DNA of 24,000 bases, taken from the NCBI RefSeq assembly GCF_018336915.1, contig NZ_CP064923.1:2529812-2553811 (forward strand), given 5' to 3'. Position 1 is the stretch's first letter; each line of letters opens with the position of its first letter. Of the stretch, positions 1,687 to 23,558 are shown piece by piece. The stretch is from Acaryochloris marina S15. GTDB taxonomy: Bacteria; Cyanobacteriota; Cyanobacteriia; Thermosynechococcales; Thermosynechococcaceae. The notes under the pieces are model-generated. The model was not told the DNA's origin. It saw only the letters and a list, made by a program, of their open reading frames with translations, and did no database searches. A program made the position numbers and the translations under genes.

Positions 1687-1779
1687 ATTGCTGTCTCCAT
1701 TCCTCTGACTAATGCACAGAAGTTTAGAGGTTGGCCTGGTCTGGTTAGGGGGAATGACCTGTCGAAATGATGGTTAGGG

Positions 1780-1948
1780 GGTGGCGAAGTTTATTGCCAT
1801 TTGACCGGCGAAGTTATTACCACAGAGGTGGCGAAGTTTATTGCCATTTGACCGGCGAAGATAACTTCCAAAGGGGTGGCGAAGTTGCTGCTATTTGACC
1901 GGCGAGGTTGCCCTCCAAAGGGGTGGCGAAGTTTGTGAGAATATGCAG
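1780..1948. repeat. Tandem direct-repeat array: 7 units of 23-24 bp starting GGCGA(A/G)G, organised as 3.5 higher-order 47-48-bp units
   Basis: GGCGA cores start at 1783, 1807, 1830, 1854, 1878, 1901 and 1925, with spacings of 24, 23, 24, 24, 23 and 24 bp. Units alternate between the type GGCGAAGTTTATTGCCATTTGACC and the type GGCGAAG(N)CAAAGGGGT. Two GGTTAGGGGG copies (1743, 1772) lie just upstream. Confidence 0.9.
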
Positions 1949-2272
1949 CTATCTTTTGAATCTCATGTGATAGACAATAGAGAACCACCGACCAATCATC
2001 CTTCGCTAATTCAAGAAATGATTGACTTGGGGTTGGTCAAGACTCAAAGGAGCCGGGCTCACTGCGATCTCTCCCGATTTCAAAGAGAATGTTGGTTTGA
2101 GTATTGTTCTGACTTGGTGTTGCCATCCATCTATACCTGGGAATTGTGGCACGAGAAATTCATCACCAGTCAAAAGGAATCGACTACCCTGATCGCACCT
2201 GGGGAAGACTTTGAGCATTTTAACTATGTATGGGTACAAGAGATGGAAATCCAGACAGTGCAACCAGGCTAA
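1943..2272 (+). CDS. Hypothetical protein (about 109 aa from the ATG at 1943; the ORF is open from a TTG at 1895)
   Basis: An ORF with protein-like composition sits immediately after the repeat array. I recognise no motif. The antisense ORF 2006..2263 competes with it. Confidence 0.3.
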   Translation: MQLSFESHVIDNREPPTNHPSLIQEMIDLGLVKTQRSRAHCDLSRFQRECWFEYCSDLVLPSIYTWELWHEKFITSQKESTTLIAPGEDFEHFNYVWVQEMEIQTVQPG

Positions 2273-2350
2273 ATTTAGATGGTTAAGGTTCTGATTGCTT
2301 CATGGCACTATAAGATGTTGCATTAACTATGGCGAAGACCAAAACGTTGT

Positions 2351-2737
2351 TTGAAGATGATAGAAATCAGATGGCTGGAGAAGGATATCAGTATGACTTA
2401 TGTATGTGAATTAGGCCCCGGCCACAGCATGTACCTTGACAACCAAGGTGCTCAGACCTTAGTCACTTTAATGATGGGTACTCCTGGACAACAACAACAG
2501 TCTAGTAATAGTTTTGGAACAGGCTGTTGGACAGCTCCACCTGAAATTTATCGAACGCCCCAAGAATTCGTCATTAAAGTAACCACTACTCACGGTGAGC
2601 AGTTTATCCAAGTGCAGGGCAGCAGCATGATTAGTATGACGAGCATCCCATCTTTGCAGAAGTCTCAACAGATACAAATAAACCTAAGTGAGGCGATCCC
2701 CTCTATTTCTGGTAGTGTCGCAAAAATAGAGTGTTGA
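2351..2737 (+). CDS. Hypothetical protein whose native 3' end has been replaced by IS6 copy 1
   Basis: The ORF crosses the IS left end at 2711, so its last 9 codons (GSVAKIEC plus stop) are IS sequence. Alternative starts are ATG 2357 and ATG 2393 (MTYVCELGPGHS...). No recognised domain. Confidence 0.35.
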   Translation: MKMIEIRWLEKDISMTYVCELGPGHSMYLDNQGAQTLVTLMMGTPGQQQQSSNSFGTGCWTAPPEIYRTPQEFVIKVTTTHGEQFIQVQGSSMISMTSIPSLQKSQQIQINLSEAIPSISGSVAKIEC

Positions 2738-3554
2738 CCGATAGACAGTGGTAAATTGAGAGGCTCTGTTCCTTTTCTCTCCCATCAATGAAAACTACTG
2801 ATCTGTTCAAATGGCGTCATTACCAATCTGAGATCATCCTGCTCAATGTTCGTTGGTATTGCCGTTATCCCCTCAGCTATAGAAATTTAGAAGAGATGAT
2901 GATAGAGAGGGGCTTAGAGGTGGATCACAGCACCATCAATCGGTGGGTTCTCAAATATTCTCCTGAGCTAGACAAGCGCTGTCGTCGGCATCTCAAGCCT
3001 ACCAATGATTCTTGGAGAGTTGATGAAACTTACATCAAAATCCGTAAAAAGTGGCGATACCTATATCGAGCCGTAGACTCTGATGGCTACACCCTCGACT
3101 TTTTACTCACAGCAAAGCGGGATGCTAAGGCTGCGAAGCGCTTTCTGACTAAAGCACTGAATGCCGTTCATACCCATGAACCTCGGGTGATCAATGTGGA
3201 CAAGAATCCAGCATATCCTCCTGCTGTTGAGCAGTTACAGGAAGAGGAACGTATCCCTGAAGGAGTAAAAGTACGGCAGGTAAAATACCTCAATAATATA
3301 GTGGAGCAAGATCATCGTGGCATTAAAAGTCTCGTGAACCCTGGTATGGGATTTGGATCGTTTAACTCGGCTAGACGAACCTTAAAAGGGTATGAAGCGA
3401 TGAACATGATCCGTAAAGGTCAGATCAAAAATGTGGGCAAAGATGATGTGGTAGGACAGATCTCTTTTATCAATCAAATCTTCGGATTAGCTGCATAGTC
3501 TCGGATAGAAATCTGAGGAGTTTTGTAACTGGAAGCATTTTTTGCGACACAACC
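2711..3554 (+). mobile_element. IS6-family insertion sequence, copy 1 (844 bp)
   Basis: The left inverted repeat is GGTAGTGTCGCAAAAA (from 2711). The right end is TTTTTGCGACACAACC (ending 3554), whose reverse complement is GGTTGTGTCGCAAAAA. The repeats match at 15 of 16 positions and resemble the IS26-type GGCACTGTTGCAAA terminus. The element carries one 236-aa transposase gene. The flanking 8-mers CTATTTCT and ATCATTAC differ. Confidence 0.9.
2788..3498 (+). CDS. IS6-family DDE transposase (236 aa)
   Basis: The size, single-ORF organisation and termini match the IS6 family. The protein is identical to the copy at 22792..23502. Confidence 0.9.
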   Translation: MKTTDLFKWRHYQSEIILLNVRWYCRYPLSYRNLEEMMIERGLEVDHSTINRWVLKYSPELDKRCRRHLKPTNDSWRVDETYIKIRKKWRYLYRAVDSDGYTLDFLLTAKRDAKAAKRFLTKALNAVHTHEPRVINVDKNPAYPPAVEQLQEEERIPEGVKVRQVKYLNNIVEQDHRGIKSLVNPGMGFGSFNSARRTLKGYEAMNMIRKGQIKNVGKDDVVGQISFINQIFGLAA

Positions 3555-3575
3555 ATCATTACTGAACGAGATATC

Positions 3576-6500: not shown

Positions 6501-8234
6501 CAGTTTCATATCCGTGCCAACTTAGTTCTGCCCCTACTCCAGGGAGATAACTTATGGGGATTGCTCTGTATTCATCAATGTTCAGGGCCGCGATCTTGGC
6601 AGCCGGATGAAATAGAGTTTGTGCAGAAGATTGCCAATCAACTGGGTATTGCCCTATATCAAGCTGAACTCCTGCTTAAAGAACAGCATCAACGCCATGT
6701 CTTATCGGTTCGAAGCCAAGAATTGACCTTCAACAATCAACAGTTGGCGGCCGCTAAACAAGAAGCTGAAACAGCTCAGAAAAAAGCAGAGCAGGCGAAT
6801 CGAGCCAAAAGTACATTTCTGGCAAATATGAGCCATGAATTGAGGACACCCTTAAATGCCATCCTAGGTTTTAGCCAGTTGATCAGTCGTGACCCCAGTA
6901 CCCCGAACTATCAGCTAGAACAACTAGAAATTATTAATCGTAGCGGTGAACATCTGCTGGCCTTAATTAACGATGTCCTCACCATGTCCAAGATTGAAGC
7001 AGGACGTTCTTCTCTCCACTCCCAAATTGTAGATTTACCGTTGCTTCTGGATACTGTGGAAAGTATGCTCGGGATTAAAGCGAAGCAAAAAAGGCTGACA
7101 CTGCTAATTAACCGTGGGCCTAACCCACCTCAGTACATTCGGACAGACCCCGGAAAACTCCGACAGGTATTAATGAATTTACTGAGTAATGCCATTAAAT
7201 TTACCACCAGTGGTCATGTCCAGCTGCACCTGGAGCCCAGTGCCTTAGACACTTCTGAGAGTTCAGATGCACCTCCATTACTAGAGCTGCGGTTTACAGT
7301 GACAGATACAGGGTCCGGCATTGCCCCAGAAGAACTTAAGTTGTTATTTGAGCCGTTTGCCCAGACAGAAACGGGGCGTCAATCCCAAGAAGGAACAGGC
7401 TTAGGATTGGCTATTAGCCGTCAATTCGTACAGCTGATGGGCGGAAATTTGACTGCCCAGAGTATCCATAACCAGGGCACAACTTTCACCTTCAATATTG
7501 TGGTTGAAAAAGTTCTACAGCAAAAGCAATCTCTCTCTCATCGTCAGTTCATGGGGTTATTACCAGATCAACCTCAATATCGAATTCTGGTAGTGGAAGA
7601 TAATATGGATAGTCGTGAATTGTTAGTAACCCTACTAGAAACTATTGGTTTTACGGTTAAGGCAGCTAAAAATGGTGAAGTAGCCGTTACACTATGCCAA
7701 AGCTGGCAACCTGATTTAGTCTGGATGGATTTGCGACTACCTATCCTAGACGGATTGAGCGCTACGCGTTTGATCAAGCAAATGGAGAATCCCCCTGTCG
7801 TCATTGCCTTAACAGCTAATGCCTTTGATGAAGATCGTGACTTGGCACTACGAGCAGGATGTGATGATTTCGTTCATAAGCCTTATCGAGAAGCAAGTAT
7901 TTTCGAAAAAATGGCTCTACATTTAGAGGTGGAGTATCATTACCAAGATAAAGTACCTCTCAAATCAACGATTCCCACCTTAAATGTGGACCATCTAGCT
8001 CAAATGCCTCATCCTTGGCTAGTTCAATTACATCAAGCGACTAATAATCTCGACCAACATATGGTGGAACTGCTCCTCGATGAGCTTGATGATACTGCTC
8101 AGCCATTGCAAGAAGCTCTCAGACATTTAGTATACGAGTTTCGTTATGACGAAATTCTAGCGGTTACGCATCCTCTCATTTCACCTCTTCCTCAGGACTC
8201 CACGGAACAGAGTCCTCAAAATGGGAATGGGTAA
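3576..8234 (+). CDS. Hybrid sensor histidine kinase (CBS remnant, coiled coils, 2 GAF, PAS, 2 GAF, HisKA, HATPase, REC, helical tail), 5'-truncated by IS6 copy 1
   Basis: The frame is open from the IS boundary at 3555 (IITERDILQLQ...), which falls inside a CBS motif. A second CBS follows (VMSSPLFFVDP...LLGIVNQDDLL). GAF-like cores are WGLLVVHAC, AITISQCD, GIIFLDQCE and WGLLCIHQC. The PAS region runs MDSIPQAIFWKD...GTAEDITERI. The H-box is SHELRTPLN (His codon 6834-6836). ATPase boxes are LLSNAIKFT, DTGSGI and GTGLGL. The REC domain is ILVVEDN...WMDLRLP (Asp codon 7728-7730). The only nearby start is a TTG at 3576, so the native N-terminus is missing. Confidence 0.85.
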   Translation: MQLQTLGIPTTTTFVEQVMSSPLFFVDPRDSLWSVYQQMHHHHIRRMVVVDSNNSNHLLGIVNQDDLLHLFDPLAMNETPQVQVEPFKQEKINLLQDWNHGLEQQQQLLEDIILAKDRAQLLEQQNLRLQQEIKDKEQAEAELNQQIEQERLLRLITQDIHSTRDIKELQSLVVNQVRQTVRADRALLFRLMPGGGGIILEESVLPSYPAMEELDGEDQDFPPECYEFYLQRKPRIVLDLHQDDWSHCLKQFWMPAQVKSKIVAPIVQSQNHGHKRLWGLLVVHACDYPRVWQPDEALFLQQVANQFAVAIQQADLAIQLQQELVERQQSDLALAQELQRSQLLGKITQKIHESLDSLHVFETAVVEIRRALKASRCNIFVYSAVDDPHFSLMFHDYEADYPDQGPEIVRLADHEYVRQLANQPEAIASPQAQSDPLLVSCLPMVEALSIQSMVSIRTSYQGNVNGAITISQCDRIRDWTPEELDLLTAVATEVGIALAHANLLTQELHQREQLSQKNQQLHTEIEEKKQTQTLLKLVMDSIPQAIFWKDRTSRYLGCNRAFAKEAGFNTAEEIIGKTDQEMPWPPEEAEWYRLSDLEVINSNQPQFHVLETQLRADGTKTWMDTNKVPLHNPKGKVVGVLGTAEDITERIQVEAELQQQLQREQVLSEITNQIRQSLDLDILLKSAVEQLCALFQVSRCSFFTYTDQPNPQLVLSAQAYSQPEWEAALSHPLLTSDHPRLLKLLANDRVRPVSDIWQEPSLATSEKESLSSTLRIRAYLSVRTAFKNHPNGIIFLDQCERRRNWTKDEVSLLGTVAAQLGIAVAHADLLADEQKQRQDLKLQNRRLQEEIAHRNQAEKALAKQLEKAELLEKIVQQIRQSLEPQLIFRTAVTQVRQLLAADRVCIYRFIEDTDHAQGMMVAEEVLPEFPSALTAHVRDRCFGDQYANRYQSGRFQAVADIHEAGLSDCHIEILAQFHIRANLVLPLLQGDNLWGLLCIHQCSGPRSWQPDEIEFVQKIANQLGIALYQAELLLKEQHQRHVLSVRSQELTFNNQQLAAAKQEAETAQKKAEQANRAKSTFLANMSHELRTPLNAILGFSQLISRDPSTPNYQLEQLEIINRSGEHLLALINDVLTMSKIEAGRSSLHSQIVDLPLLLDTVESMLGIKAKQKRLTLLINRGPNPPQYIRTDPGKLRQVLMNLLSNAIKFTTSGHVQLHLEPSALDTSESSDAPPLLELRFTVTDTGSGIAPEELKLLFEPFAQTETGRQSQEGTGLGLAISRQFVQLMGGNLTAQSIHNQGTTFTFNIVVEKVLQQKQSLSHRQFMGLLPDQPQYRILVVEDNMDSRELLVTLLETIGFTVKAAKNGEVAVTLCQSWQPDLVWMDLRLPILDGLSATRLIKQMENPPVVIALTANAFDEDRDLALRAGCDDFVHKPYREASIFEKMALHLEVEYHYQDKVPLKSTIPTLNVDHLAQMPHPWLVQLHQATNNLDQHMVELLLDELDDTAQPLQEALRHLVYEFRYDEILAVTHPLISPLPQDSTEQSPQNGNG

Positions 8235-8414
8235 GCTAAAAGTAGATATAGGAACTTTATGGAGAAGGAATTTCCCAATTCTTAAATACCCCTTTGTCTC
8301 AATCTATTTAGCTCGCTCCTGCAAAGAATGGCTTGGGAATGTCTTATCGTCAGTCAAAAGTCATCAATAACCGAAAGTCCTTGATAGGTGGCCAGCTATA
8401 TACCTAGTAAAGCC

Positions 8415-10996: not shown

Positions 10997-11233
10997 TTAC
11001 CCTTCTCCGCCTTCACCACCATCATCAGAGGAGCTGTCCTCTCCGCCTTCTCCGCCATCATCGGTAGAGCCATCCTCTCCACCTTCTCCGCCATCATCGG
11101 CAGGACTTTCCACAGCTGGGCTGGGGCTTTCCTGTTCTCCCCCTTCACCATTCGTTGTGCCGCCATCGCAGGCGAAAAGGGTAGCAGATAAACCCAGGGC
11201 AAGAAATAACTCAACTGATTTAGAACGTTTCAT
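10997..11233 (-). CDS. Small secreted acidic repeat lipoprotein (78 aa from the ATG at 11233)
   Basis: The signal peptide plus lipobox is MKRSKSVELFLALGLSATLFAC. The mature part is Gly/Asp/Glu-rich, with three DDGGEGGE(D/G) repeats. An upstream in-frame GTG at 11242 is possible but less likely. Confidence 0.6.
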   Translation of the reverse strand: MKRSKSVELFLALGLSATLFACDGGTTNGEGGEQESPSPAVESPADDGGEGGEDGSTDDGGEGGEDSSSDDGGEGGEG

Positions 11234-11923: not shown

Positions 11924-12976
11924 ATGCAAAACTACGGTAACCCTGAAGTTACCTATGGCTGGTGGGCGGGTAATTCGCGCGTAGCCAGCTCTTCAGGTTT
12001 ATTTATTTCTGCCCATACGGGTCATGCTGGCTTGATATCGGTGTGGGCGGGTGGTTTTACATTATTTGAGCTAAGTCGCTACACCACTGACTCTCCCATG
12101 TGGGACCAAGGTCTCGTTCTCCTCCCTCATTTGGCCGCAGAGGGCATTGGCTTCGGTTCAGGTGGAATCCTGGATGATCCTCAACAGCTGGTTGCCGTGG
12201 CTATGGTCCACATCATTGCAGGGGCTGTATTAGGGGCTGGAGCGCTGTTTCATCTCTTAAAAGCTCCCTTAGATTTAAGTGATGCCTCCGGTGCAGCTCG
12301 CACCTACCATTTCGAATGGGACAATACCACTAAACTCGGTCGAATTTTAGGCCATCATCTCCTCATTTTGGGCTTGTATACCCTCCTATTTGTGGGTTGG
12401 GCCATGTATTGGGGAGGACTCTATGACCCTGATTTGCAAGAAGTCAGGTTGGTCACAGATCCCACCCTCAGTCCATCTGTTATTTTTGGCTATCAAACCC
12501 ATTTCGACAGTGTTGACAATTTGGAAGATATTGTCGGTGGCCATATCTTTATTGCTGTCCTAGATATTGTCGGTGGGATTTTCCACTTGCTCGTTCCCAT
12601 GTTGCCTTGGGCCAAGAAGCGAGTTCCTGTCAATGGGGAAGCAATCTTGTCCTATTCCTTAGGAGCAGTGGCTTTCTTCGGTTTCCTGTCCGCCTATTGG
12701 TGTTCGGTCAATACCTATATTTGGCCAGAAGAGTTTTATGGACCTGCTTTGCAAATCGAGTTTGGCTTTACGCCCTACTTTGCAGATACGGTAGATCTCC
12801 CCTACGGCATCCATTCCGCTCGATGCTGGCTTTCGAATACAACCTACATCTTTGCTTTCTATTTTCTCCAAGGTCATCTTTGGCATGCCTTGAGAGGGCT
12901 AGGCTTTAACTTTCGATCAGTCGATCACTTTCTCAATTCTTTGACCGACGAGCAGCTGGCAGTCAAACCAAAGTAA
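11924..12976 (+). CDS. isiA: IsiA/CP43'/Pcb-family chlorophyll-binding antenna protein (350 aa)
   Basis: The N-terminus [20 protein letters not shown]...[21 protein letters not shown] is the CP43-family hallmark. The 350-aa length indicates it lacks the large lumenal loop of PsbC. A flavodoxin gene follows, as in isiAB operons. Confidence 0.9.
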
Positions 12977-13077
12977 TTGAAAATTGCTAACCGCTACTGC
13001 TCCGCCTGCGCAAGCATTCTCGAATAAGTCTGCGTAGGCCTTATACCCCATTCAACTCCGTTGAATAAGAGCGCCAC

Positions 13078-13130
13078 GGTAAGAGCGTGAACAATCTGAC
13101 CGTTTTACGCTCTTGCCACTTTCTTTTTCA
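13078..13130 (+). terminator. Hairpin plus T-rich tract between isiA and the flavodoxin gene, candidate partial terminator or attenuator
   Basis: GGTAAGAGCGT (13078-13088) pairs with ACGCTCTTGCC (13107-13117) over 11 bp, including one G-U pair. The loop is 18 nt. ACTTTCTTTTTCA follows. Confidence 0.4.
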
Positions 13131-13169
13131 CGAAACTTAGTTTTCTTGTAGTAATCCTTTGGAGTACAT

Positions 13170-13682
13170 ATGTCACAAATCGGAATGTTCTTTGGCACCA
13201 CCACTGGCAAAACAGCAGAAGCTGCTGAAAAGATCCAAGAGGCCTTTGGGGGTGAAGATGTTGTCACACTCATTGAAATCCCAGATGTCGAAGATGGAGA
13301 CTTTTCTAGTTACAATTTCTTGTTGATTGGTTCTCCAACTTGGGATATCGGTGAGCTGCAAAGTGACTGGGACGCTTTTTTCCCTAATTTAGACAGCATT
13401 GACTTTTCCGGTAAGAAAGTGGCCTACTTTGGTACAGGCGATCAGGTGGGCTATGCCGATAACTACATGGATGCCATCGGCATGATTGAGGCAAAAATCA
13501 CTGAGAAGGGCGGCCAAACCGTTGGCTATTGGTCAACGGATGGGTATGAGTTTGATGGCTCCAAGGCAGACAGAGGAGGAAAATTTTGTGGGTTAGCCCT
13601 GGATGAAGATAACCAGTCTGAACTCTCTGATGAGCGCATAGAGGCTTGGGTTGCCCAAGTTAAAACAGAATTCGGAATATAG
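13170..13682 (+). CDS. isiB: Long-chain flavodoxin (170 aa)
   Basis: The FMN phosphate-binding loop is MFFGTTTGKTAEAA. Other flavodoxin motifs are GSPTW and GTGDQVGYADNY. The 170-aa length fits the long-chain class, and the gene sits directly downstream of isiA. Confidence 0.92.
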   Translation: MSQIGMFFGTTTGKTAEAAEKIQEAFGGEDVVTLIEIPDVEDGDFSSYNFLLIGSPTWDIGELQSDWDAFFPNLDSIDFSGKKVAYFGTGDQVGYADNYMDAIGMIEAKITEKGGQTVGYWSTDGYEFDGSKADRGGKFCGLALDEDNQSELSDERIEAWVAQVKTEFGI

Positions 13683-15137: not shown

Positions 15138-15244
15138 CGACCCAGCTTTTAACTCAGTCTTGCTCGCCAGCAGCGGTTTCAATCAAGCACCCTTCGTCAA
15201 GGATTGGACGATCTTGAGAGATTCGTCAATATGGCCTTGGAAGT

Positions 15245-16088
15245 GGTTGTGTCGCAAAAAATGCTTCCAGTTACAAAACTCCTCAGATTTCTATCCGAGA
15301 CTATGCAGCTAATCCGAAGATTTGATTGATAAAAGAGATCTGTCCTACCACATCATCTTTGCCCACATTTTTGATCTGACCTTTACGGATCATGTTCATC
15401 GCTTCATACCCTTTTAAGGTTCGTCTAGCCGAGTTAAACGATCCAAATCCCATACCAGGGTTCACGAGACTTTTAATGCCACGATGATCTTGCTCCACTA
15501 TATTATTGAGGTATTTTACCTGCCGTACTTTTACTCCTTCAGGGATACGTTCCTCTTCCTGTAACTGCTCAACAGCAGGAGGATATGCTGGATTCTTGTC
15601 CACATTGATCACCCGAGGTTCATGGGTATGAACGGCATTCAGTGCTTTAGTCAGAAAGCGCTTCGCAGCCTTAGCATCCCGCTTTGCTGTGAGTAAAAAG
15701 TCGAGGGTGTAGCCATCAGAGTCTACGGCTCGATATAGGTATCGCCACTTTTTACGGATTTTGATGTAAGTTTCATCAACTCTCCAAGAATCATTGGTAG
15801 GCTTGAGATGCCGACGACAGCGCTTGTCTAGCTCAGGAGAATATTTGAGAACCCACCGATTGATGGTGCTGTGATCCACCTCTAAGCCCCTCTCTATCAT
15901 CATCTCTTCTAAATTTCTATAGCTGAGGGGATAACGGCAATACCAACAAACATTGAGCAGGATGATCTCAGATTGGTAATGACGCCATTTGAACAGATCA
16001 GTAGTTTTCATTGATGGGAGAGAAAAGGAACAGAGCCTCTCAATTTACCACTGTCTATCGGTCAACACTCTATTTTTGCGACACTACC
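15245..16088 (-). mobile_element. IS6-family insertion sequence, copy 2 (844 bp, inverted relative to copies 1 and 3)
   Basis: It has the same termini as the other copies: GGTTGTGTCGCAAAAA starts at 15245 and TTTTTGCGACACTACC ends at 16088. The flanking 8-mers TTGGAAGT and TGAATTTG differ. Confidence 0.9.
15301..16011 (-). CDS. IS6-family DDE transposase (236 aa)
   Basis: It is identical to the other two copies except for residue 22 (Cys instead of Arg). The cause is a single nucleotide difference at 15948. Confidence 0.9.
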   Translation of the reverse strand: MKTTDLFKWRHYQSEIILLNVCWYCRYPLSYRNLEEMMIERGLEVDHSTINRWVLKYSPELDKRCRRHLKPTNDSWRVDETYIKIRKKWRYLYRAVDSDGYTLDFLLTAKRDAKAAKRFLTKALNAVHTHEPRVINVDKNPAYPPAVEQLQEEERIPEGVKVRQVKYLNNIVEQDHRGIKSLVNPGMGFGSFNSARRTLKGYEAMNMIRKGQIKNVGKDDVVGQISFINQIFGLAA

Positions 16089-16338
16089 TGAATTTGAATT
16101 GGCTCAAAGCAAATCGACTCAAACCGAATCACTGATAACACCCGATCTTGCTCATTCGCTAACTTCACCAAAGCCACAATCAGCACTTTTGACCATAAAT
16201 CTCGGACTCAAGCATGGCCTGTTGTTGACCATAAACGGGCTTCCCTTAAATAGTCAAAAATCCAACTAGCTAGCCCCATTGGGATGAGTTGATGTTGGTA
16301 TGTGCAACAATCAATACACCGCAAACACTTGACGAACT

Positions 16339-16875
16339 ATGGCACCCAAATTTGACTATATGAATGACAGTGGAGCCGCTGACGTTGGGCAAAGTATCTT
16401 CGAGGAAATATCGGAATCCAGAGAGGAGCCTATTGCCGCATCACCCCGGATTGAAATCAAAAAAGTGGAAGTAGAATCCACAACTAAAAGGAACGGTCAA
16501 TTGTTTGGAGTAAAGGAGAACGTTCGCTTTGCCGTACCTAATTGCAACCTATCGGTCTTAACTGAAATCGATTGGGACGAACTATCAGTTTGGGCAGACG
16601 AGACTATCAAGCAGTACTTAAAGCTAATGAACCCAGAGCTGATGCCTCTATTCCAACGAGACAATAAGAAGAAGAAGTTCAAGCCAGCGAGTACTCAAAG
16701 TCCTTGCAGCTTGGCTGAGAGATACCCTTGTTATGTAGAGCTAAAGCAGGCGAGGGGCAATATGCTGTATGTTCATTCTAAATTGCCTAACTCAGATCGA
16801 CTGTGGAAAAATACTTTTTGGTACTGCTGGGCTGAGGATGTGAATCGGGTCGAAGCTGGTCTGAAGAAGAAATAA
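16339..16875 (+). CDS. Hypothetical protein (178 aa)
   Basis: A long ORF with an acidic N-terminus, a KKKKFK patch and a Trp/Cys-rich C-terminus. I recognise no domain. Confidence 0.45.
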   Translation: MAPKFDYMNDSGAADVGQSIFEEISESREEPIAASPRIEIKKVEVESTTKRNGQLFGVKENVRFAVPNCNLSVLTEIDWDELSVWADETIKQYLKLMNPELMPLFQRDNKKKKFKPASTQSPCSLAERYPCYVELKQARGNMLYVHSKLPNSDRLWKNTFWYCWAEDVNRVEAGLKKK

Positions 16876-17088
16876 ATCCGACCAATGGGGCTGGGTGATG
16901 TAGAAATACCAGTTGGCCGAAGTTAGATGAGTTGTCTAAAGTCCTCCTAATGCCTGTTCTCTGGTGTTTCTGGGCTACAGGGAATATGCAGATTTCAGTC
17001 TTATGTGTGCTCTCCAAAATTTCTCGAAAGCATTGTTATCATGCATGGGATAAGAGTATTAACTTCAGAACATTCTTGAGGACTAACG

Positions 17089-17790
17089 ATGGCTAATCAA
17101 GAACAGATAGCCTTGCTCAGTCAGGGTGTTGAAGTTTGGAATGAGTGGAGAACGGATAATCTCAAGGTACCGATCAACCTGAGTGGAGCTAACCTTGCTG
17201 GTCTTGATCTATGTACGATTAACCTTCATAAAGCGATCCTGAACGGTATCAATCTTTCGAGCGCCAATCTCAGTCAGGCTAACCTTTGTGAAGTCAGTCT
17301 CTGGAAAGCTAATCTCCGTGGTGCCATTTTGGATAAAGCTAACCTTAAAGACGCCAACCTTATAGAAGCTGACTTATGTACGGCCAGTTTCCGTAAAGCC
17401 AATCTCTATAACGTCAACCTTTATAAAGCCGATCTCAGTCAGGCTAATCTTTGTAGAGCCTATCTATACAGAGCCGATCTCAGTGAGGCATCTCTCAGTC
17501 AGGTCAACCTGAGTGAAGCTTATCTGTGTGAAGCCAACCTCAATAAAGCGGACCTCTCTGGTGCGGATCTTGAAGGAGCTAATTTTGAGGGAGCCGACCT
17601 TCTCAACATCCGTTTTGATTCTGATACCAAGTGGTCATCAATAGGTAGTTGGAATAATGCTAGAGGTATACCGCAGGAATGGATGGATGGGAGCAGTCAA
17701 GAAGATGAAGTTCCGCAAAGGGTTGATGGAGCAATTGTTCCTGATGTCAGTTCCGATGTTGCTTCAAATTCAGTGCTATTGGCTGATTAG
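17089..17790 (+). CDS. Pentapeptide-repeat protein (233 aa)
   Basis: About 30 consecutive A(D/N)LxX pentapeptides (ANLAGLDLCTINLHKAILNGINLSSANLSQANL...), followed by a non-repeat acidic tail. Confidence 0.9.
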   Translation: MANQEQIALLSQGVEVWNEWRTDNLKVPINLSGANLAGLDLCTINLHKAILNGINLSSANLSQANLCEVSLWKANLRGAILDKANLKDANLIEADLCTASFRKANLYNVNLYKADLSQANLCRAYLYRADLSEASLSQVNLSEAYLCEANLNKADLSGADLEGANFEGADLLNIRFDSDTKWSSIGSWNNARGIPQEWMDGSSQEDEVPQRVDGAIVPDVSSDVASNSVLLAD

Positions 17791-17823
17791 CTGTGCTTGT
17801 GGGTCTATGGTGAGAGTTCCCCT

Positions 17824-17874
17824 TTGACATCCTCTACCTCTGTACCTTTCAGGTACAGAGGTAGAGGATGTCAA
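17824..17874. terminator. Perfect 23-bp-stem hairpin between convergent genes, candidate bidirectional terminator
   Basis: TTGACATCCTCTACCTCTGTACC (17824-17846), loop TTTCA, then GGTACAGAGGTAGAGGATGTCAA (17852-17874). It lies 34 nt after the pentapeptide gene stop and about 200 nt after the stop of the convergent 164-aa gene. There is no U-tract. Confidence 0.5.
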
Positions 17875-18072
17875 CAAGGGTTCAAGTCGACTGGATATGC
17901 TTAATAATTCTGGGTTTCTTTAAGGATTGTAATTGAACTAGAAAAGCACAAAGGGCATGGGTAGGCTAACAGCAACAGCGAGATTCTCTGGAACAGTATT
18001 TGAGAACCTCTTCACTTGTACAGCTCTTCAATTTATCAAGATTGAGGAGCTTCTATCTTTATTAAACAGACA

Positions 18073-18567
18073 TCACCATAAAACTGAATATCCAGGATGG
18101 CCTTGGAGATTATTGTTCTTCGGGGCAGGTGCATCCCAGATCAACTTAAATCGCTCCAATCCTTTTGGGCTGATATCGATCTCGCCATCTGTCAATATCA
18201 GTTCACCATTGGCGAAGGTTGAACCCGCCGCATTAAGGATACCAATAAACTCATCGTGCTCTGTAATAACAGAAACATATCGCTTCAAGCCACTGTAAGA
18301 ATATATCTGCGAAATTTGCCCCATAGTGCCAGGATAATGTTCGAATAACACTCGAATGTAGAGAGAGAGGAGGGGCATTGGATCGTCGATGCCAAACACG
18401 GCATTGCAGATGCAGGTCGATGTTGTCAGCATCCAAGTGGCAATCTTTTTGGGATCGGTAGAGCGGTCTCGTGCCATCTCCAAAAGGAGATCCATCATAT
18501 TATTCCTGAAGGGAACATCCAAACGAGTTTCTAAGTTTTTCCAGACGGCTAAAGTATTAGGATCCAT
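18073..18567 (-). CDS. Hypothetical protein (164 aa)
   Basis: This is the longest ORF in the interval, and its composition is more protein-like than that of the overlapping + strand ORF 17957..18298. No recognised motif. Confidence 0.45.
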   Translation of the reverse strand: MDPNTLAVWKNLETRLDVPFRNNMMDLLLEMARDRSTDPKKIATWMLTTSTCICNAVFGIDDPMPLLSLYIRVLFEHYPGTMGQISQIYSYSGLKRYVSVITEHDEFIGILNAAGSTFANGELILTDGEIDISPKGLERFKLIWDAPAPKNNNLQGHPGYSVLW

Positions 18568-18787
18568 TTGAAGTTGAGGTATTCACTTGCTATACCTTTG
18601 GATACCCAAATTAGTCCAAAAACCGTCAAGAATTTACTCAATAATGGCAACCTAGACAACAGTTCCTGCTTGGCCTCCTGTCATTGAATAATCAACGGTT
18701 GAACTGCGGGCTTGGTGAAGGTGATCATGGTGAGTGGGGTTGAGTTGCTTGCTGAGGGTTTGAAGCTTGATTTGAAGTGCAGTAATA

Positions 18788-18845
18788 GGGGTATGGTTTG
18801 CCTAAGCCTGGGGGGTGACTCCCAGGCTTAGGCAAACCATACCCC
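18788..18845. terminator. Perfect 25-bp-stem hairpin downstream of the DUF4157 operon, candidate terminator
   Basis: GGGGTATGGTTTGCCTAAGCCTGGG (18788-18812), loop GGGTGACT, then CCCAGGCTTAGGCAAACCATACCCC (18821-18845). It lies 37 nt downstream of the 63-aa ORF stop on the minus strand. Confidence 0.5.
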
Positions 18846-18881
18846 CGATAGTGATTCAATTCAAGCTGCTATGACTTCTAG

Positions 18882-19073
18882 CTATTGCATCACCCCCAAA
18901 CCCTCGTCCAGCCACATCCCGATCATCTCCTCAATCCGCTTAATCGTCTCTCCTGGACGCAGACTCAACACTTGCAACACATCAAACGTGTCTTCTAATT
19001 CCAAGGCGCACTCGAAACAAAACTCAGGACTTCCAAACGAAATTCTGATGAATGGCTTACCGCTGCCACCCAC
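18882..19073 (-). CDS. Small hypothetical protein (63 aa, GTG start), weakly HicB/UPF0150-like
   Basis: The only available start is a GTG two codons after an in-frame stop. The C-terminal half, LRPGETIKRIEEMIGMWLDEG, resembles the ..GeTleEAlenakEAielwLE.. helix of short HicB-type proteins. It is the third gene of the co-directional block. Confidence 0.35.
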   Translation of the reverse strand: MGGSGKPFIRISFGSPEFCFECALELEDTFDVLQVLSLRPGETIKRIEEMIGMWLDEGLGVMQ

Positions 19074-19170
19074 GGTGATCTAATACAGATACAACATCAG
19101 ATCTCGAAATCTCAATGTGAGAGGTTTTTGAGTTGTTACTCAAATAAAACAACACAACAAGTCCCAAAAA

Positions 19171-20115
19171 TTATTTTGATGCACTCGGTAAATGTAGCAA
19201 GCGCTCACCATCACGAAAGAGCCAATCAAACCACAATTTGAGTAACTGGTGACCCTCTAGTTTAAGTGGTACTTCAAGGGCTTCCAGAGCCTTATCACGA
19301 TGATCTAATGCTCGCATCATCAATCGACCACGAACATCGTGACTGTCCAGTAGTTGGCGAATAGCCATGTCGTCACGGTATTTCTGGGCACACAGTTTTG
19401 ATAGTGTTTCACTCGTTTTACATCCATGCTCCATGCCTAAAAGCACCGGGTATGTATATTGTTCGTGCCCAGGATCTTCAGCATTGTCCGGGAACCAGAA
19501 CGCCTCAATATCATCAAGAATTTGCTGAGCCCAGCCGATATGCCGACCACAGACTCGACATCTCTCAATTGCTTTGGCATCAGCAGTGACAGCATTTGCA
19601 CCCGTAACTGCTGCAAGCTCATAAGCAGCAACAGTTTTTAACTCAACAACTTCCTCATATGCTGCCAAAGACCGAACCTCTCGCCGAATGTCTCTATCCT
19701 GTCCCTTACACACCCGAAGCAGAGCGTCAAAGTAGTCTCTTGTCATGAGGTCGCTATCTGGTGATGCTTTGGAGAGCAGTCCAATCTCTCGTGAAGCTAA
19801 TGTAATTAGCGCAGCAGAGAAATTTGCTGCACGTCCAATACCTATTTGTTGATATAAAGCACTAGGGTTATCCTGGTCAGCTATATCATCGAGAGTACGA
19901 AGTGCAAAGGCGACTGCAACGATAGCTGATGTGATAGGAATTAGATGTTCCGTAGAGCCACCACATGCATAGCCAGTGGCTACAGGTAAGGTCGCTACAG
20001 GTGGAAGCGGGTCTGGAAGAGTGGTAGACATTAATTCTCCCAAAGCAATATCAACATCACTAGCGAGAGTAATAACTCTGAGACGAATTGCATGGAGGAT
20101 GTCTTGTGGGGTCAT
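19171..20115 (-). CDS. Divergent polyprenyl (trans-isoprenyl) diphosphate synthase-fold protein (314 aa)
   Basis: The first Asp-rich motif is LDDIAD (DDIAD codons 19876-19890). A KGQDRDI motif corresponds to GQxxDL, and KTVAAYELAAVTGA corresponds to the KT motif. GWAQQILDDIEAF corresponds to GxAFQxxDDxxD, but its last Asp is Ala (DDIEA codons 19501-19515). The gene starts 9 nt after the upstream stop. Confidence 0.65.
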   Translation of the reverse strand: MTPQDILHAIRLRVITLASDVDIALGELMSTTLPDPLPPVATLPVATGYACGGSTEHLIPITSAIVAVAFALRTLDDIADQDNPSALYQQIGIGRAANFSAALITLASREIGLLSKASPDSDLMTRDYFDALLRVCKGQDRDIRREVRSLAAYEEVVELKTVAAYELAAVTGANAVTADAKAIERCRVCGRHIGWAQQILDDIEAFWFPDNAEDPGHEQYTYPVLLGMEHGCKTSETLSKLCAQKYRDDMAIRQLLDSHDVRGRLMMRALDHRDKALEALEVPLKLEGHQLLKLWFDWLFRDGERLLHLPSASK

Positions 20116-20124
20116 AAAGTCTAA

Positions 20125-21606
20125 TTAGAAATTTAATTCAATGCGTTTTGTGTCTTTTGCTGCATTAAGACGAGTGACCTGATCGCGATAGTGGTTCGTT
20201 TTAGCTACTCCGATATAGTCTGAAAAATTCTCACATGGGAAAAACTTTCCGAATGCGTCAAATTCATCGCTCTTGCCTGCTTCTTTGAAAAACGGCTCTA
20301 CTTCTGCGAAAGTATTTCTGGCGAGCTGAAAGCTATCCCATTCGTAGTATTCTTGGATAGCTGCACGCCACTCTTCAGGTGTAGTGGGATTCAATGGATT
20401 TAGAGAGTCCACTTCCCAATCAGATAATTTCACTCCACTTTCAAAATCACCTTTTTCATAAGCATTTTTAACTTTCGCAAACCGAGTATGCTGAATAGCA
20501 TTTGCAGTTTCGAAAATTGCGTTCAAAGCAGTAGTAGTGTTATGTCCTTTCGCAAGTCGGACCTCATGGCTTTCGGGATCATATGAACCCGATGTTCCCT
20601 TCTGAGCTGTCTTGTAGGTAACCCCTGCTTTCGCTTTGAGTTTTGCAAACTCCTCGGATTTATCGAGGATTGCTTTGACGATGACTCCTGGTTTACTACC
20701 TGCTCCTACTAACTCATCTTTAAGCTCGGTCGGGCTACTTGTACCGCAACAGCGATGCACCCGACCTACAGGGGATTCGTTGATTATCTCAGTGGGCTGA
20801 CCAAAAGCAATTGCACTCCTCTTAGCCTGATCCTTGGATGGTAGCCGACTCATGGATACTTTACTTCTGTTGGCTTGAATCGCGCCATTCTGCTGTACTA
20901 CATGGGTCAACTCATGAGCAATCAGCTCTTGTCCAACACGGTTCCCAGGCTGATATGCTCCCTCTCGGAAAAACATATCCTGACCCGTCGTAAATGCCCT
21001 CGCCTGAATCGATTGATTTAACTGGTCTGACTGGGTATCTGTATGCACCCGTACTCCACTAAAATCAGCACCCATTGCCTGACCCATTGACTGCTGCAAT
21101 TCTGAATTCAATGGCTGTCCACTACCCCTGGCTCTATTGATAGTAGACTCTAAATCTGGCGATGCTTCTTCACCTGCTATTGCTTGCCGCCGCTGGATGG
21201 CAGCACGAAGACTTTTCGCTTGTATTTCATCTTCTGGTCTTTTCTCCCGTTGAATTGACTGATCTTGATTTAATTGAGAAGAATTAGGAGCATTGATTTG
21301 ATAAACCACTTGAGAAGCAACTCTATCCGCTTCTTGTTCATATTTATCTCCTGGCTGCCCAAGCGTTAGCTTCCGCTGAATCCAAGGTTGTGCTAAGTCT
21401 CCGGATGGGTTAGGAACTTTATCCATCCAGGGCGTTCCAAACCGTGCCCATTTCTCCTGCTGAGCTTTCCATTCTGCTAAACCCTCTTCATTTGTCTTTG
21501 CTTGAATAGCAGGTACTACTGGAGCTGTTGATTGAATTTGGTCTAGTGATTTTGCCTGTGGTATCGGTTGAGATTTCTCTGGCTGAGAAGAATGTGTACG
21601 CTTCAT
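20125..21606 (-). CDS. DUF4157 (zincin-like HExxH) domain protein with an unassigned C-terminal domain of about 210 aa; polymorphic-toxin/effector-type architecture
   Basis: The leader is IQRKLTLGQPGDKYEQEADRVASQV. It is followed by GQPLNSELQQSMGQAMGADFSGVRVHTD...ARAFTTGQDMFF...ELIAHELTHVVQQ (HELTH codons 20902-20916), which is the DUF4157 signature as I know it. I cannot assign residues ~285-493. Confidence 0.7.
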   Translation of the reverse strand: MKRTHSSQPEKSQPIPQAKSLDQIQSTAPVVPAIQAKTNEEGLAEWKAQQEKWARFGTPWMDKVPNPSGDLAQPWIQRKLTLGQPGDKYEQEADRVASQVVYQINAPNSSQLNQDQSIQREKRPEDEIQAKSLRAAIQRRQAIAGEEASPDLESTINRARGSGQPLNSELQQSMGQAMGADFSGVRVHTDTQSDQLNQSIQARAFTTGQDMFFREGAYQPGNRVGQELIAHELTHVVQQNGAIQANRSKVSMSRLPSKDQAKRSAIAFGQPTEIINESPVGRVHRCCGTSSPTELKDELVGAGSKPGVIVKAILDKSEEFAKLKAKAGVTYKTAQKGTSGSYDPESHEVRLAKGHNTTTALNAIFETANAIQHTRFAKVKNAYEKGDFESGVKLSDWEVDSLNPLNPTTPEEWRAAIQEYYEWDSFQLARNTFAEVEPFFKEAGKSDEFDAFGKFFPCENFSDYIGVAKTNHYRDQVTRLNAAKDTKRIELNF

Positions 21607-21770
21607 CTACTGTCCCCTATCCGAAATCGAATCACCTTCCTTCAATCCTAAACCCAAGGAAATAATTACTACGATAGGAAATGTGCTAACTCAAATAGTA
21701 GTTGATTCACTCCCAGATCCGGGCCAACCACTCCCGACCCAGATACGCCACGACCATCTACTCGATCTGC

Positions 21771-22714: not shown

Positions 22715-23558
22715 GGTAGTGTCGCAAAAATAGAGTGTTGACCGATAGACAGTGGTAAATTGAGAGGCTCTGTTCCTTTTCTCTCCCATCAATGAAAACT
22801 ACTGATCTGTTCAAATGGCGTCATTACCAATCTGAGATCATCCTGCTCAATGTTCGTTGGTATTGCCGTTATCCCCTCAGCTATAGAAATTTAGAAGAGA
22901 TGATGATAGAGAGGGGCTTAGAGGTGGATCACAGCACCATCAATCGGTGGGTTCTCAAATATTCTCCTGAGCTAGACAAGCGCTGTCGTCGGCATCTCAA
23001 GCCTACCAATGATTCTTGGAGAGTTGATGAAACTTACATCAAAATCCGTAAAAAGTGGCGATACCTATATCGAGCCGTAGACTCTGATGGCTACACCCTC
23101 GACTTTTTACTCACAGCAAAGCGGGATGCTAAGGCTGCGAAGCGCTTTCTGACTAAAGCACTGAATGCCGTTCATACCCATGAACCTCGGGTGATCAATG
23201 TGGACAAGAATCCAGCATATCCTCCTGCTGTTGAGCAGTTACAGGAAGAGGAACGTATCCCTGAAGGAGTAAAAGTACGGCAGGTAAAATACCTCAATAA
23301 TATAGTGGAGCAAGATCATCGTGGCATTAAAAGTCTCGTGAACCCTGGTATGGGATTTGGATCGTTTAACTCGGCTAGACGAACCTTAAAAGGGTATGAA
23401 GCGATGAACATGATCCGTAAAGGTCAGATCAAAAATGTGGGCAAAGATGATGTGGTAGGACAGATCTCTTTTATCAATCAAATCTTCGGATTAGCTGCAT
23501 AGTCTCGGATAGAAATCTGAGGAGTTTTGTAACTGGAAGCATTTTTTGCGACACAACC
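22715..23558 (+). mobile_element. IS6-family insertion sequence, copy 3 (844 bp)
   Basis: It has the same termini as copy 1 (GGTAGTGTCGCAAAAA from 22715, ...GCGACACAACC ending 23558) and encodes an identical transposase. The flanking 8-mers GCTGTATC and GGAACTAA differ. Confidence 0.9.
22792..23502 (+). CDS. IS6-family DDE transposase (236 aa)
   Basis: The protein is identical to the copy at 2788..3498. Confidence 0.9.
   Translation: MKTTDLFKWRHYQSEIILLNVRWYCRYPLSYRNLEEMMIERGLEVDHSTINRWVLKYSPELDKRCRRHLKPTNDSWRVDETYIKIRKKWRYLYRAVDSDGYTLDFLLTAKRDAKAAKRFLTKALNAVHTHEPRVINVDKNPAYPPAVEQLQEEERIPEGVKVRQVKYLNNIVEQDHRGIKSLVNPGMGFGSFNSARRTLKGYEAMNMIRKGQIKNVGKDDVVGQISFINQIFGLAA

Follow-up and report, generated by a model that had tools for sequence, protein, structure and literature searches.

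In a 24,000-nucleotide stretch of the Acaryochloris marina S15 genome (contig NZ_CP064923.1, positions 2,529,812 to 2,553,811 of the forward strand; this whole stretch is called the window, and coordinates refer to it unless another locus is named) two neighboring genes on the minus strand form a cassette that recurs in other bacteria. Gene 1 (20125–21606, (−) strand) is an open reading frame (ORF) of 493 amino acids (aa) encoding a polymorphic effector of the DUF4157/eCIS-core type (eCIS, extracellular contractile injection system), and gene 2 (19171–20115, (−) strand) is an ORF of 314 aa encoding a protein with the fold of trans-isoprenyl diphosphate synthases (trans-IPPS). We found that gene 2 tracks a linker motif of about 40 aa in the product of gene 1 and not the toxin domain that follows it; the co-occurrence of motif and synthase-like gene is almost exclusive and is accompanied by co-evolution. 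The pairing persists whichever toxin domain is present, and even where the DUF4157 core is missing. Because the gene of the prenylating enzyme likewise adjoins the gene of its substrate in the ComQ/ComX system, we propose by analogy that gene 2 encodes a ComQ/Ord1-like enzyme prenylating the linker of gene 1, a reading that may well be right and may equally well be wrong.

Relatives of gene 2, here referred to as synthase-like genes, fell into 17 clusters (90%) among 5.8 billion proteins, and scans of genomes and metagenomes contributed about 20 further loci. The hosts are Acaryochloris, Pseudanabaena, Nostoc, Spirulina, an uncultured cyanobacterium, two metagenome-assembled genomes (MAGs) of Chloroflexota and one betaproteobacterial MAG. 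Neighborhood look-ups revealed a co-directional upstream gene, mostly annotated as eCIS_core, wherever the available sequence sufficed. An ORF bearing the linker motif lies directly upstream of the synthase-like gene in 19 of 19 non-redundant loci, and the gap from the stop codon of the toxin gene to the start of the synthase-like gene measures 6–145 nt in 16 of them. In the window 9 nt separate the stop codon of gene 1 from the ATG of gene 2, the same spacing that had been given in an earlier interpretation made from the letters of the window alone (the original prediction). Among the 19 loci, 16 of 16 main-clade loci that were found via the synthase and had upstream DNA available show the motif ORF upstream. 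The other three came from searches that did not use the synthase, and a synthase-like gene lies downstream in every one. One of these (L034), found by DNA similarity to DUF4157 genes, is a paralogous instance on the A. marina plasmid pREC3 in which motif and synthase are both present. The second (P0032/L036) was identified by its DUF4157 protein and motif and served as a blind prediction: a 317-aa polyprenyl_synt gene begins 3 nt past the stop codon of P0032. The third (P0153/L039) was retrieved with the motif profile, and again a polyprenyl_synt gene lies downstream.

Searching from the side of the motif gave the same picture. With a hidden Markov model of the motif the sole match in each locus was the ORF that immediately precedes the synthase-like gene; about 400 kb of loci gave none elsewhere. 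The motif profile searched against 1.84 billion representative proteins returned 28 matches at E <= 1e-3, three of which were spurious repeats, leaving about 25 clusters, approximately the size of the synthase-like family. Less than 1% of DUF4157 proteins bear the linker motif. Among the 120 closest DUF4157 homologs of gene 1 it is present in five, and all five are accompanied by the synthase (four of these loci were known before). As controls we considered five motif-less DUF4157 genes (L006b, L015b, L035, L037 and L038), namely two close Acaryochloris paralogs (P0023 and P0024), the paralog on the Moss Beach plasmid (L035) and, from L006 and L015, the second DUF4157 gene of each; a synthase-like gene was found in none of the five. 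The comparison of 19/19 with 0/5 yields p = 2.4e-5 in Fisher's test, 16 of the 19 positives having been ascertained through the synthase. Adjacency of the pair persists down to about 40% identity and between phyla. Conservation in other genomes, which the original prediction had named as a check, thus holds across cyanobacteria, Chloroflexota and a betaproteobacterium; the linker motif itself, the feature to which the pairing is tied, had been overlooked in its description of the unit.

We also compared the synthase-like proteins with the C-terminal domains of their upstream partners. By BLAST clustering these domains make up at least 7 unrelated families in the loci, a number that rises to at least 10 with the library matches added, in agreement with the earlier assignment of gene 1 to polymorphic effectors with variable C-termini. 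Of ten different C-terminal domains submitted to Pfam only two gave a signal, RamC_N in L008 and a faint one for PARP/Tpt1 in L020. In a neighbor-joining tree the synthase-like proteins separate according to motif subtype (HRC versus RQF), with toxin families A, B and C scattered over both branches. Two partners (L008 and L016) are devoid of the DUF4157 HExxH core, yet motif and synthase-like neighbor are both kept.

The distribution over toxin families bears directly on the question of immunity, since the original prediction had by implication placed gene 2 in the slot of an immunity gene. A single synthase-like family goes with toxin domains of at least 10 unrelated families. As it stays constant while the C-terminal toxin domain varies, gene 2 is not an immunity protein. 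A more general variant would be an immunity factor or pro-toxin inhibitor that clamps the shared linker in the producer. Gene 2 does lie directly downstream of the toxin gene, the usual position of immunity genes, most loci have no other small downstream gene, and many eCIS-associated toxins are without an obvious immunity gene (PMC8213781). We nevertheless regard this variant as very unlikely: immunity proteins co-vary with toxin domains, whereas here one family serves at least 10 unrelated ones, and the conserved catalytic residues described below would be left unexplained. Moreover, a motif-less Acaryochloris DUF4157 toxin (P0024) is followed by a CdiI-type immunity gene instead, and three loci hold, besides the synthase, a separate toxin-specific small gene of 142–161 aa in the immunity slot between toxin and synthase-like gene (L015, 5507–5947; L024, 1242–1727; L039, 2793–3218). 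The small ORFs of L015 and L024 are 46% identical, YbjN-like (PF10722) and both accompany toxin family C; because they co-vary with the toxin in this way, they are candidate cognate immunity or chaperone genes.

Gene 1 consists of a leader and a DUF4157 zincin-like core, the disordered linker motif and an exchangeable C-terminal domain. The core, a minimal-zincin domain (eCIS_core), covers 20881–21114 on the (−) strand (aa 165–242, Pfam PF13699, E 2e-31), with the HExxH sequence HELTH at aa 231; leader and core had been recognized correctly in the original prediction. In the AlphaFold2 (AF2) model the core is predicted at a local confidence (pLDDT) above 90 over aa ~150–245 and displays weak fold echoes of selecase, IrrE, SprT and ArdC. 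An A. marina protein 100% identical to gene 1 (P0018) is annotated from an internal ATG at 21426 and has 433 aa; the exact 493-aa form was not recorded as a called gene. The ortholog in A. marina MBIC11017 shares 83% identity.

The C-terminal domain of gene 1, which we named family A, covers 20125–20733 on the (−) strand (aa 292–493, up to the stop codon) and is presumed to be the toxin domain. It is common to L001, L006, L016, L018, L036, P0140, P0144, P0145 and P0160, and its invariants are FETANAxQ, IQEYYEW and one His. We found no Pfam, PDB-sequence or Foldseek match for aa 292–493, a profile searched against PDB sequences gave noise only and the full-length model of gene 1 retrieved nothing significant from the PDB with Foldseek, so that the domain is as unassignable as had been stated. 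A large word-indexed search with aa 248–493 came back empty, probably owing to a limitation of the index, since the full-length query found orthologs. FETANAxQ loosely echoes the HELTHVVQ helix of DUF4157 (xExxxxxQ), and the family A domain might be a degenerate zincin-like duplicate.

Between core and toxin domain lies the linker or pre-toxin motif (20734–20850, (−) strand; aa 253–291 of gene 1: SRLPSKDQAKRSAIAFGQPTEIINESPVGRVHRCCGTSS), which directly precedes the variable C-terminal domain in all partners. Its consensus reads SR[LF]P[ST]xxQxxxSxxx[LF]G[QR], then, after 5–15 residues, GR[IVL]HRC or PV[RKQ]QFx[C/N/W]. Over 18 paired loci the invariants are R-x-P-x7-S-x4-G, corresponding to R254, P256, S264 and G269 in gene 1; the library match P0149 carries D in place of the invariant Gly. 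Cys is the commonest residue after HR or QFx (C286 in gene 1) without being universal. In the AF2 model of gene 1 the motif is located between two folded domains, and because its pLDDT is very low (27–47) we take it as flexible: it looks like an exposed, disordered linker. Several members have a polybasic, Lys/Arg-rich run after the Cys, e.g. HRCGPGKKKRRGGG, which resembles prenyl-plus-polybasic membrane anchors.

We then assessed gene 2 as an enzyme. It scores 48.4 bits against PF00348 (gathering cut-off 27), and its AF2 model (pLDDT 90.5; predicted template modeling score, pTM, 0.89) has the all-alpha trans-IPPS fold, with Foldseek template modeling (TM) scores of 0.7–0.8 to geranylgeranyl and octaprenyl diphosphate synthases (GGPPS/OPPS) and to Ord1. 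The first Asp-rich motif (FARM), R73-T-L-D76-D77-I-A-D80-Q-D82 (19870–19899, (−) strand), is the site for the prenyl-diphosphate/Mg2+ donor. At the second Asp-rich motif (SARM) gene 2 has the pseudo-motif Q198-I-L-D201-D202-I-E204-A205 (19501–19524, (−) strand). An isoprenoid-synthase fold with a degenerate second Asp-rich motif (DDIEA) is therefore present, as originally predicted. Judged in alignments of 17 and 18 sequences, R73, D76, D77, D80, D82, G138, Q139, K160, Q198 and D202 are invariant at about 45% mean identity. The pseudo-SARM follows the pattern (D/N)DxE(A/S), in which position 201 is D, or N in two sequences, and position 205 is always A or S and never Asp.

Other parts of a canonical synthase are missing. 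In profile-to-PDB alignments the segment RRG(K)P that follows the first motif in canonical synthases is deleted in gene 2. Profile alignments to solved synthases begin past the GGKRxR region, and the GGKRxR motif occurs nowhere in gene 2. Ahead of the aligned segment lies LPDPLPP (19999–20019, (−) strand; aa 33–39; family consensus LPxPLxP), which, by comparison with the IspA sequence, may replace GGKRxR position for position. Translation confirmed the coordinates of the DUF4157 core, the linker motif, the first Asp-rich motif and LPDPLPP. Because the residues of the first motif are invariant, RRG is deleted, GGKRxR is absent and the second motif is degenerate, the sequence signature of gene 2 is that of an enzyme with the allylic diphosphate/Mg2+ donor site kept and the isopentenyl diphosphate (IPP) site lost. 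Putatively, gene 2 no longer elongates with IPP and still binds and activates an allylic prenyl diphosphate.

Public annotation labels members of the family as "polyprenyl synthetase family protein" or "geranylgeranyl diphosphate synthase", and together with the PF00348 score above the gathering cut-off this would fit an ordinary synthase of geranylgeranyl or farnesyl diphosphate (GGPP, FPP) that stands beside the toxin gene by chance. Such a chance neighborhood is hardly credible. Canonical FPP and GGPP synthases need two DDxxD motifs as well as GGKRxR and RRG, whereas gene 2 has a degenerate second motif and lacks RRG and GGKRxR, the segments that bind IPP. Its scores against the NCBIfam synthase equivalogs do not exceed 36 bits, far below the cut-offs of 275–600; the best NCBIfam match of all reaches 56 bits, to a model of encapsulin-cargo polyprenyl transferases with a cut-off of 450. 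Furthermore, the family has only about 25 members, always next to motif-bearing toxins, and toxin and synthase move jointly, as a cassette of two genes, between chromosomal, plasmid and insertion sequence (IS)-flanked contexts.

A first motif that is kept and a second one that has decayed are known from enzymes prenylating peptides. In ComQ the first motif is essential and the pseudo-SARM keeps only the second Asp (PMC5331326). PalQ (PMC10853753) and StheQ (bioRxiv 10.64898/2026.08.29.745113) also combine a kept first motif with a pseudo-SARM. Gene 2 shares several features with the pairs ComQ/ComX, PalQ/PalX and StheQ/StheX: the trans-IPPS fold, the kept first motif and the second motif degenerated to a pseudo-SARM; an enzyme gene adjoining that of a polypeptide (in 19/19 loci here), which in the cassette is the proposed substrate; and a flexible segment as presumed recognition site. 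Going by its sequence signature it would, like them, perform no chain elongation. The likeness seen consists in these features and not in a specific sequence affinity, and the pseudo-SARM (D/N)DxE(A/S) of gene 2 differs from the N/G-D-x-x-x of ComQ. The substrates of the known pairs are pheromone or RiPP (peptide made by ribosomes and modified after translation) precursors of ~55–70 aa modified at Trp, whereas the partner here is a polymorphic toxin of 300–900 aa. In addition the motif lies inside the protein and lacks a conserved Trp, and the gene order puts the enzyme downstream of its partner.

By motif pattern gene 2 resembles the all-alpha indole prenyltransferases Ord1/XiaM (PDB 9v4g), with which it shares Q-x-x-D-D-x-x-A. 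The pseudo-SARM of Ord1 reads D219-D220-x-x-A223, with the catalytic Q216 three residues before (PMC12510300). Ord1 is among the highest-identity matches of gene 2 (21–22%), its Foldseek and profile matches being comparable to those of genuine synthases. Unlike gene 2, Ord1 is neither paired with a peptide nor linked to toxins: it prenylates free indole in a natural-product pathway. Gene 2 could, for instance as a terpene synthase or as an unusual prenyl transferase of a metabolite, make or consume a small-molecule isoprenoid that acts together with the toxin as cofactor, signal or co-delivered compound, the motif being a cleavage or sorting signal or something else. A kept donor site with a lost IPP site fits Ord1 and XiaM too, and the profile of gene 2 also matches some structures termed "terpene synthase". 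We consider a small-molecule function quite unlikely, as it leaves the one-to-one co-occurrence and co-evolution with the 40-aa motif unexplained and the neighborhoods of the loci show no further conserved biosynthetic genes.

The reading we prefer remains prenylation of the linker. Gene 2 would dock on the disordered linker motif of its upstream partner and move a prenyl group (geranyl, farnesyl or geranylgeranyl, with geranyl diphosphate (GPP), FPP or GGPP as donor) to it. The product would be a lipidated pro-toxin with a freely swappable toxin head, and the lipid might serve membrane targeting in the recipient, loading or export, or keep the toxin harmless in the producer. We infer that gene 2 is catalytically active, that the motif is its substrate rather than a mere binding site and that the chemistry is prenyl transfer. 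In its most far-reaching form, the proposal describes the first self-encoded bacterial lipidation of full-size toxins, in which an enzyme with the fold of a trans-IDS (trans-isoprenyl diphosphate synthase) prenylates a non-Trp residue within a portable tag of ~40 aa. This we hold to be possible, if somewhat short of probable. If true, it would extend ComQ-type chemistry beyond Trp and small peptides and provide DUF4157/eCIS-type effectors with a lipid anchor for membrane targeting or loading.

The obvious candidate acceptor is Cys286. In eukaryotes K-Ras4B combines CaaX prenylation with a polybasic region to a lipid-plus-charge membrane anchor, and some bacterial effectors hijack host prenylation. 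What the linker shares with the CaaX/K-Ras4B arrangement is a Cys beside basic residues, joined in several members by a run rich in Lys/Arg. Unlike in CaaX proteins, the site is internal, the putative transferase is self-encoded with an unrelated fold and the Cys is not universal.

Several observations weigh against prenylation of the linker. The Cys of the motif is substituted by N, W, S, T or G in about one third of the members. The motif has no conserved Trp either, and Trp appears at the variable position in only two members, while Trp of small peptides is the residue modified by every trans-IDS-like peptide prenyltransferase characterized (PMC13290415). Most members of the gene 2 family have Asp at the first position of the pseudo-SARM, like Ord1; in ComQ, exchange of Asn for Asp at this position strongly lowers activity (PMC5331326). 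Finally, a distant clade of synthase-like proteins (31–34% identity) is found near DUF4157 or CdiA-CT toxins without the canonical motif. S-prenylation of Cys as one universal site was ruled out because of the substitutions in about one third of the members.

The loci of the distant clade (L027, 7062–8885; L028, 2652–4505; L032, 2759–4474) differ in gene order as well. The canonical motif gave no significant match in the distant-clade partners, only a loose resemblance of the type TLRRC…C. One of the partners bears a CdiA-CT RNase A domain. In L028 and L032 loosely similar stretches, TLRRC..C and TLRG..C, occur ahead of the toxin domain. One synthase-like ORF of the same length and score is present twice on the 7.3-kb metagenome contig of L028 (408–1367 and 5684–6643), a duplication which is probably a circular or concatemeric assembly artefact.

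Constant modules and accessory factors are familiar from polymorphic toxin systems, among them PT-VENN and PT-HINT and the adaptors DUF4123, DUF1795 and DUF2169 of type VI secretion systems (T6SS). The cassette shares with them a short constant module before an exchangeable toxin and an accessory gene keyed to the constant part; the linker motif is probably unrelated to the described pre-toxin domains. Gene 2 might be a non-catalytic or ligand-binding adaptor, a chaperone or a piggy-backing co-effector that binds the linker in order to stabilize, mask, load or export the effector. This would explain the linkage of motif and synthase and the independence of the toxin domain equally well, would fit a motif without a Trp acceptor and would resemble the way in which T6SS adaptor proteins recognize conserved regions of effectors. 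It also agrees with L006, where the module comes right after a gene for an ATPase with winged-helix domain (WHD) and AAA domain (739 aa, 1296–3515) that overlaps the start of the motif-bearing toxin gene and hints at loading machinery; this ATPase may be a link to an effector-loading ATPase. In the same locus a second, motif-less DUF4157 gene (6711–8348) follows the synthase-like gene. We nonetheless consider an adaptor unlikely. The invariance of D76, D77, D80, D82, Q139, K160, Q198 and D202 at about 45% identity is unexpected for a pure scaffold, the accessory protein here, unlike the T6SS adaptors, has an enzyme-like IPPS fold with an intact donor site, and this fold is not known to act as an adaptor.

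DUF4157 is an established marker of eCIS-associated toxins, its own role being obscure (PMC8213781, PMC11297309). Gene 1 matches these toxins in its N-terminal HExxH core, linker and variable C-terminal domain. They differ in location: an eCIS-associated DUF4157 toxin would be expected within or near an eCIS operon, and eCIS genes are absent within ±6 kb in most loci of the module. A distant member of the synthase-like family (P0017, 32% identity) adjoins sheath and Pvc16 genes, and L036 is flanked by XisH/XisI, which belong to the eCIS "cloud" domains (PMC11297309). The window holds no eCIS, injection or secretion genes over its 24 kb, and PADLOC returned no defense-system match for any of four ORFs tested, so that the earlier statement that contractile-injection, secretion and known defense genes are lacking still holds.

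The components of the cassette belong to known superfamilies and its logic resembles that of ComQ/ComX. In full-text literature searches we found no paper linking DUF4157, eCIS or polymorphic toxins with prenyl or polyprenyl enzymes, and terms for prenyl or isoprenoid are absent from the two main surveys of eCIS toxins (PMC8213781, PMC11297309). The claim of an undescribed architecture is thus upheld, within the literature searched, for the pair of DUF4157 protein and synthase-fold protein; it fails for a 63-aa ORF, which had been counted as its third member and is treated below. If prenylation of a protein at a residue other than Trp were confirmed, the cassette would represent a new type of toxin-maturation system, a dedicated bacterial protein prenylation for large secreted or injected toxins; to our knowledge prenylation of ribosomal products in bacteria is so far known only for small peptides. 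The trans-IDS-like prenyltransferases would gain an acceptor chemistry other than Trp. The ~40-aa motif and a single enzyme would make up a compact, genetically encodable lipidation tag for protein engineering, with a possible use in programmable eCIS delivery, where cargo loading and targeting remain open problems. Such prenylation would also help to explain some of the DUF4157 effectors, a group with an admittedly obscure biology. Were gene 2 an adaptor instead, an accessory factor matched one-to-one to a pre-toxin motif would still be a new element of polymorphic toxins.

The original prediction had described a block of three co-directional minus-strand ORFs ending at a hairpin. All three ORFs are present in the ORF list, the third being the 63-aa ORF with a GTG start (18882–19073, (−) strand). 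DNA homology to the chromosomal cassette of A. marina MBIC11017/MBIC10699 (81% identity) is confined to ~19198–21657, i.e. to genes 1 and 2, and the flanks differ, with IS6 copies in the window and IS630 and IS1 elements in A. marina MBIC11017/MBIC10699. Because homology stops at genes 1 and 2 and neither the 63-aa ORF nor the hairpin is conserved, the conserved mobile unit comprises genes 1 and 2 only. The 63-aa ORF had no Pfam or PADLOC match, an NCBIfam match at noise level only and no tblastn match in any related locus; the HicB-like features ascribed to it could not be found in these searches, and it is probably not a gene.

The hairpin (18788–18845) exists as described, with perfect arms of 25 bp (dG −58 kcal/mol, z −10.4), but does not belong to the unit, being absent from all 40 other loci fetched. 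It is situated about 325 nt past the stop codon of gene 2. As terminator of the operon it was ruled out by this distance, the missing U-tract and the lack of conservation; a repeat element is one possibility, a terminator of non-canonical type another. A plasmid of A. marina MBIC10699 contains only a partial match (87%), within unannotated DNA. A second perfect palindrome (17824–17874, 24-bp arms, 3-nt loop) lies between a pentapeptide-repeat gene and a 164-aa ORF, and two long perfect palindromes inside 1 kb are unusual. The 164-aa ORF (18073–18567, (−) strand), downstream of the hairpin, had no Pfam, NCBIfam or PADLOC match.

Three 100%-identical copies of an IS6-family element (DDE_Tnp_IS240) are located at 2702–3555 ((+) strand), 15244–16097 ((−) strand) and 22715–23558 ((+) strand). 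The last two enclose the cassette, as originally noted, and the three copies delimit two composite-transposon-like segments. In segment 16098–22714 the toxin module is accompanied by the pentapeptide protein, the 164-aa ORF and an OmpR-type response regulator. The window segment itself has no counterpart in the plasmid collection; parts of the flank 16100–19086 are matched at 96% by a plasmid of Acaryochloris sp. "Moss Beach", in features labeled only as hypothetical proteins.

The remaining genes of the window encode a hybrid sensor kinase, PadR, a cytochrome b-like protein, an iron-stress cluster, the pentapeptide protein and the OmpR-type regulator. The region 11924–13682 is a classical iron-stress cluster with an isiA-like photosystem II antenna gene (11924–12976), the antisense RNA IsrR within it (12317–12494, (−) strand; RF01419, 96 bits) and, following the isiA-like gene, a flavodoxin gene (13170–13682). 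Three direct repeats of about 47 nt occupy 1795–1933, upstream of an ORF at 1895, and three tandem repeats of 36 nt (TCTCCGCCTTC…) are found at 11004–11111 in an intergenic or ORF-poor stretch.

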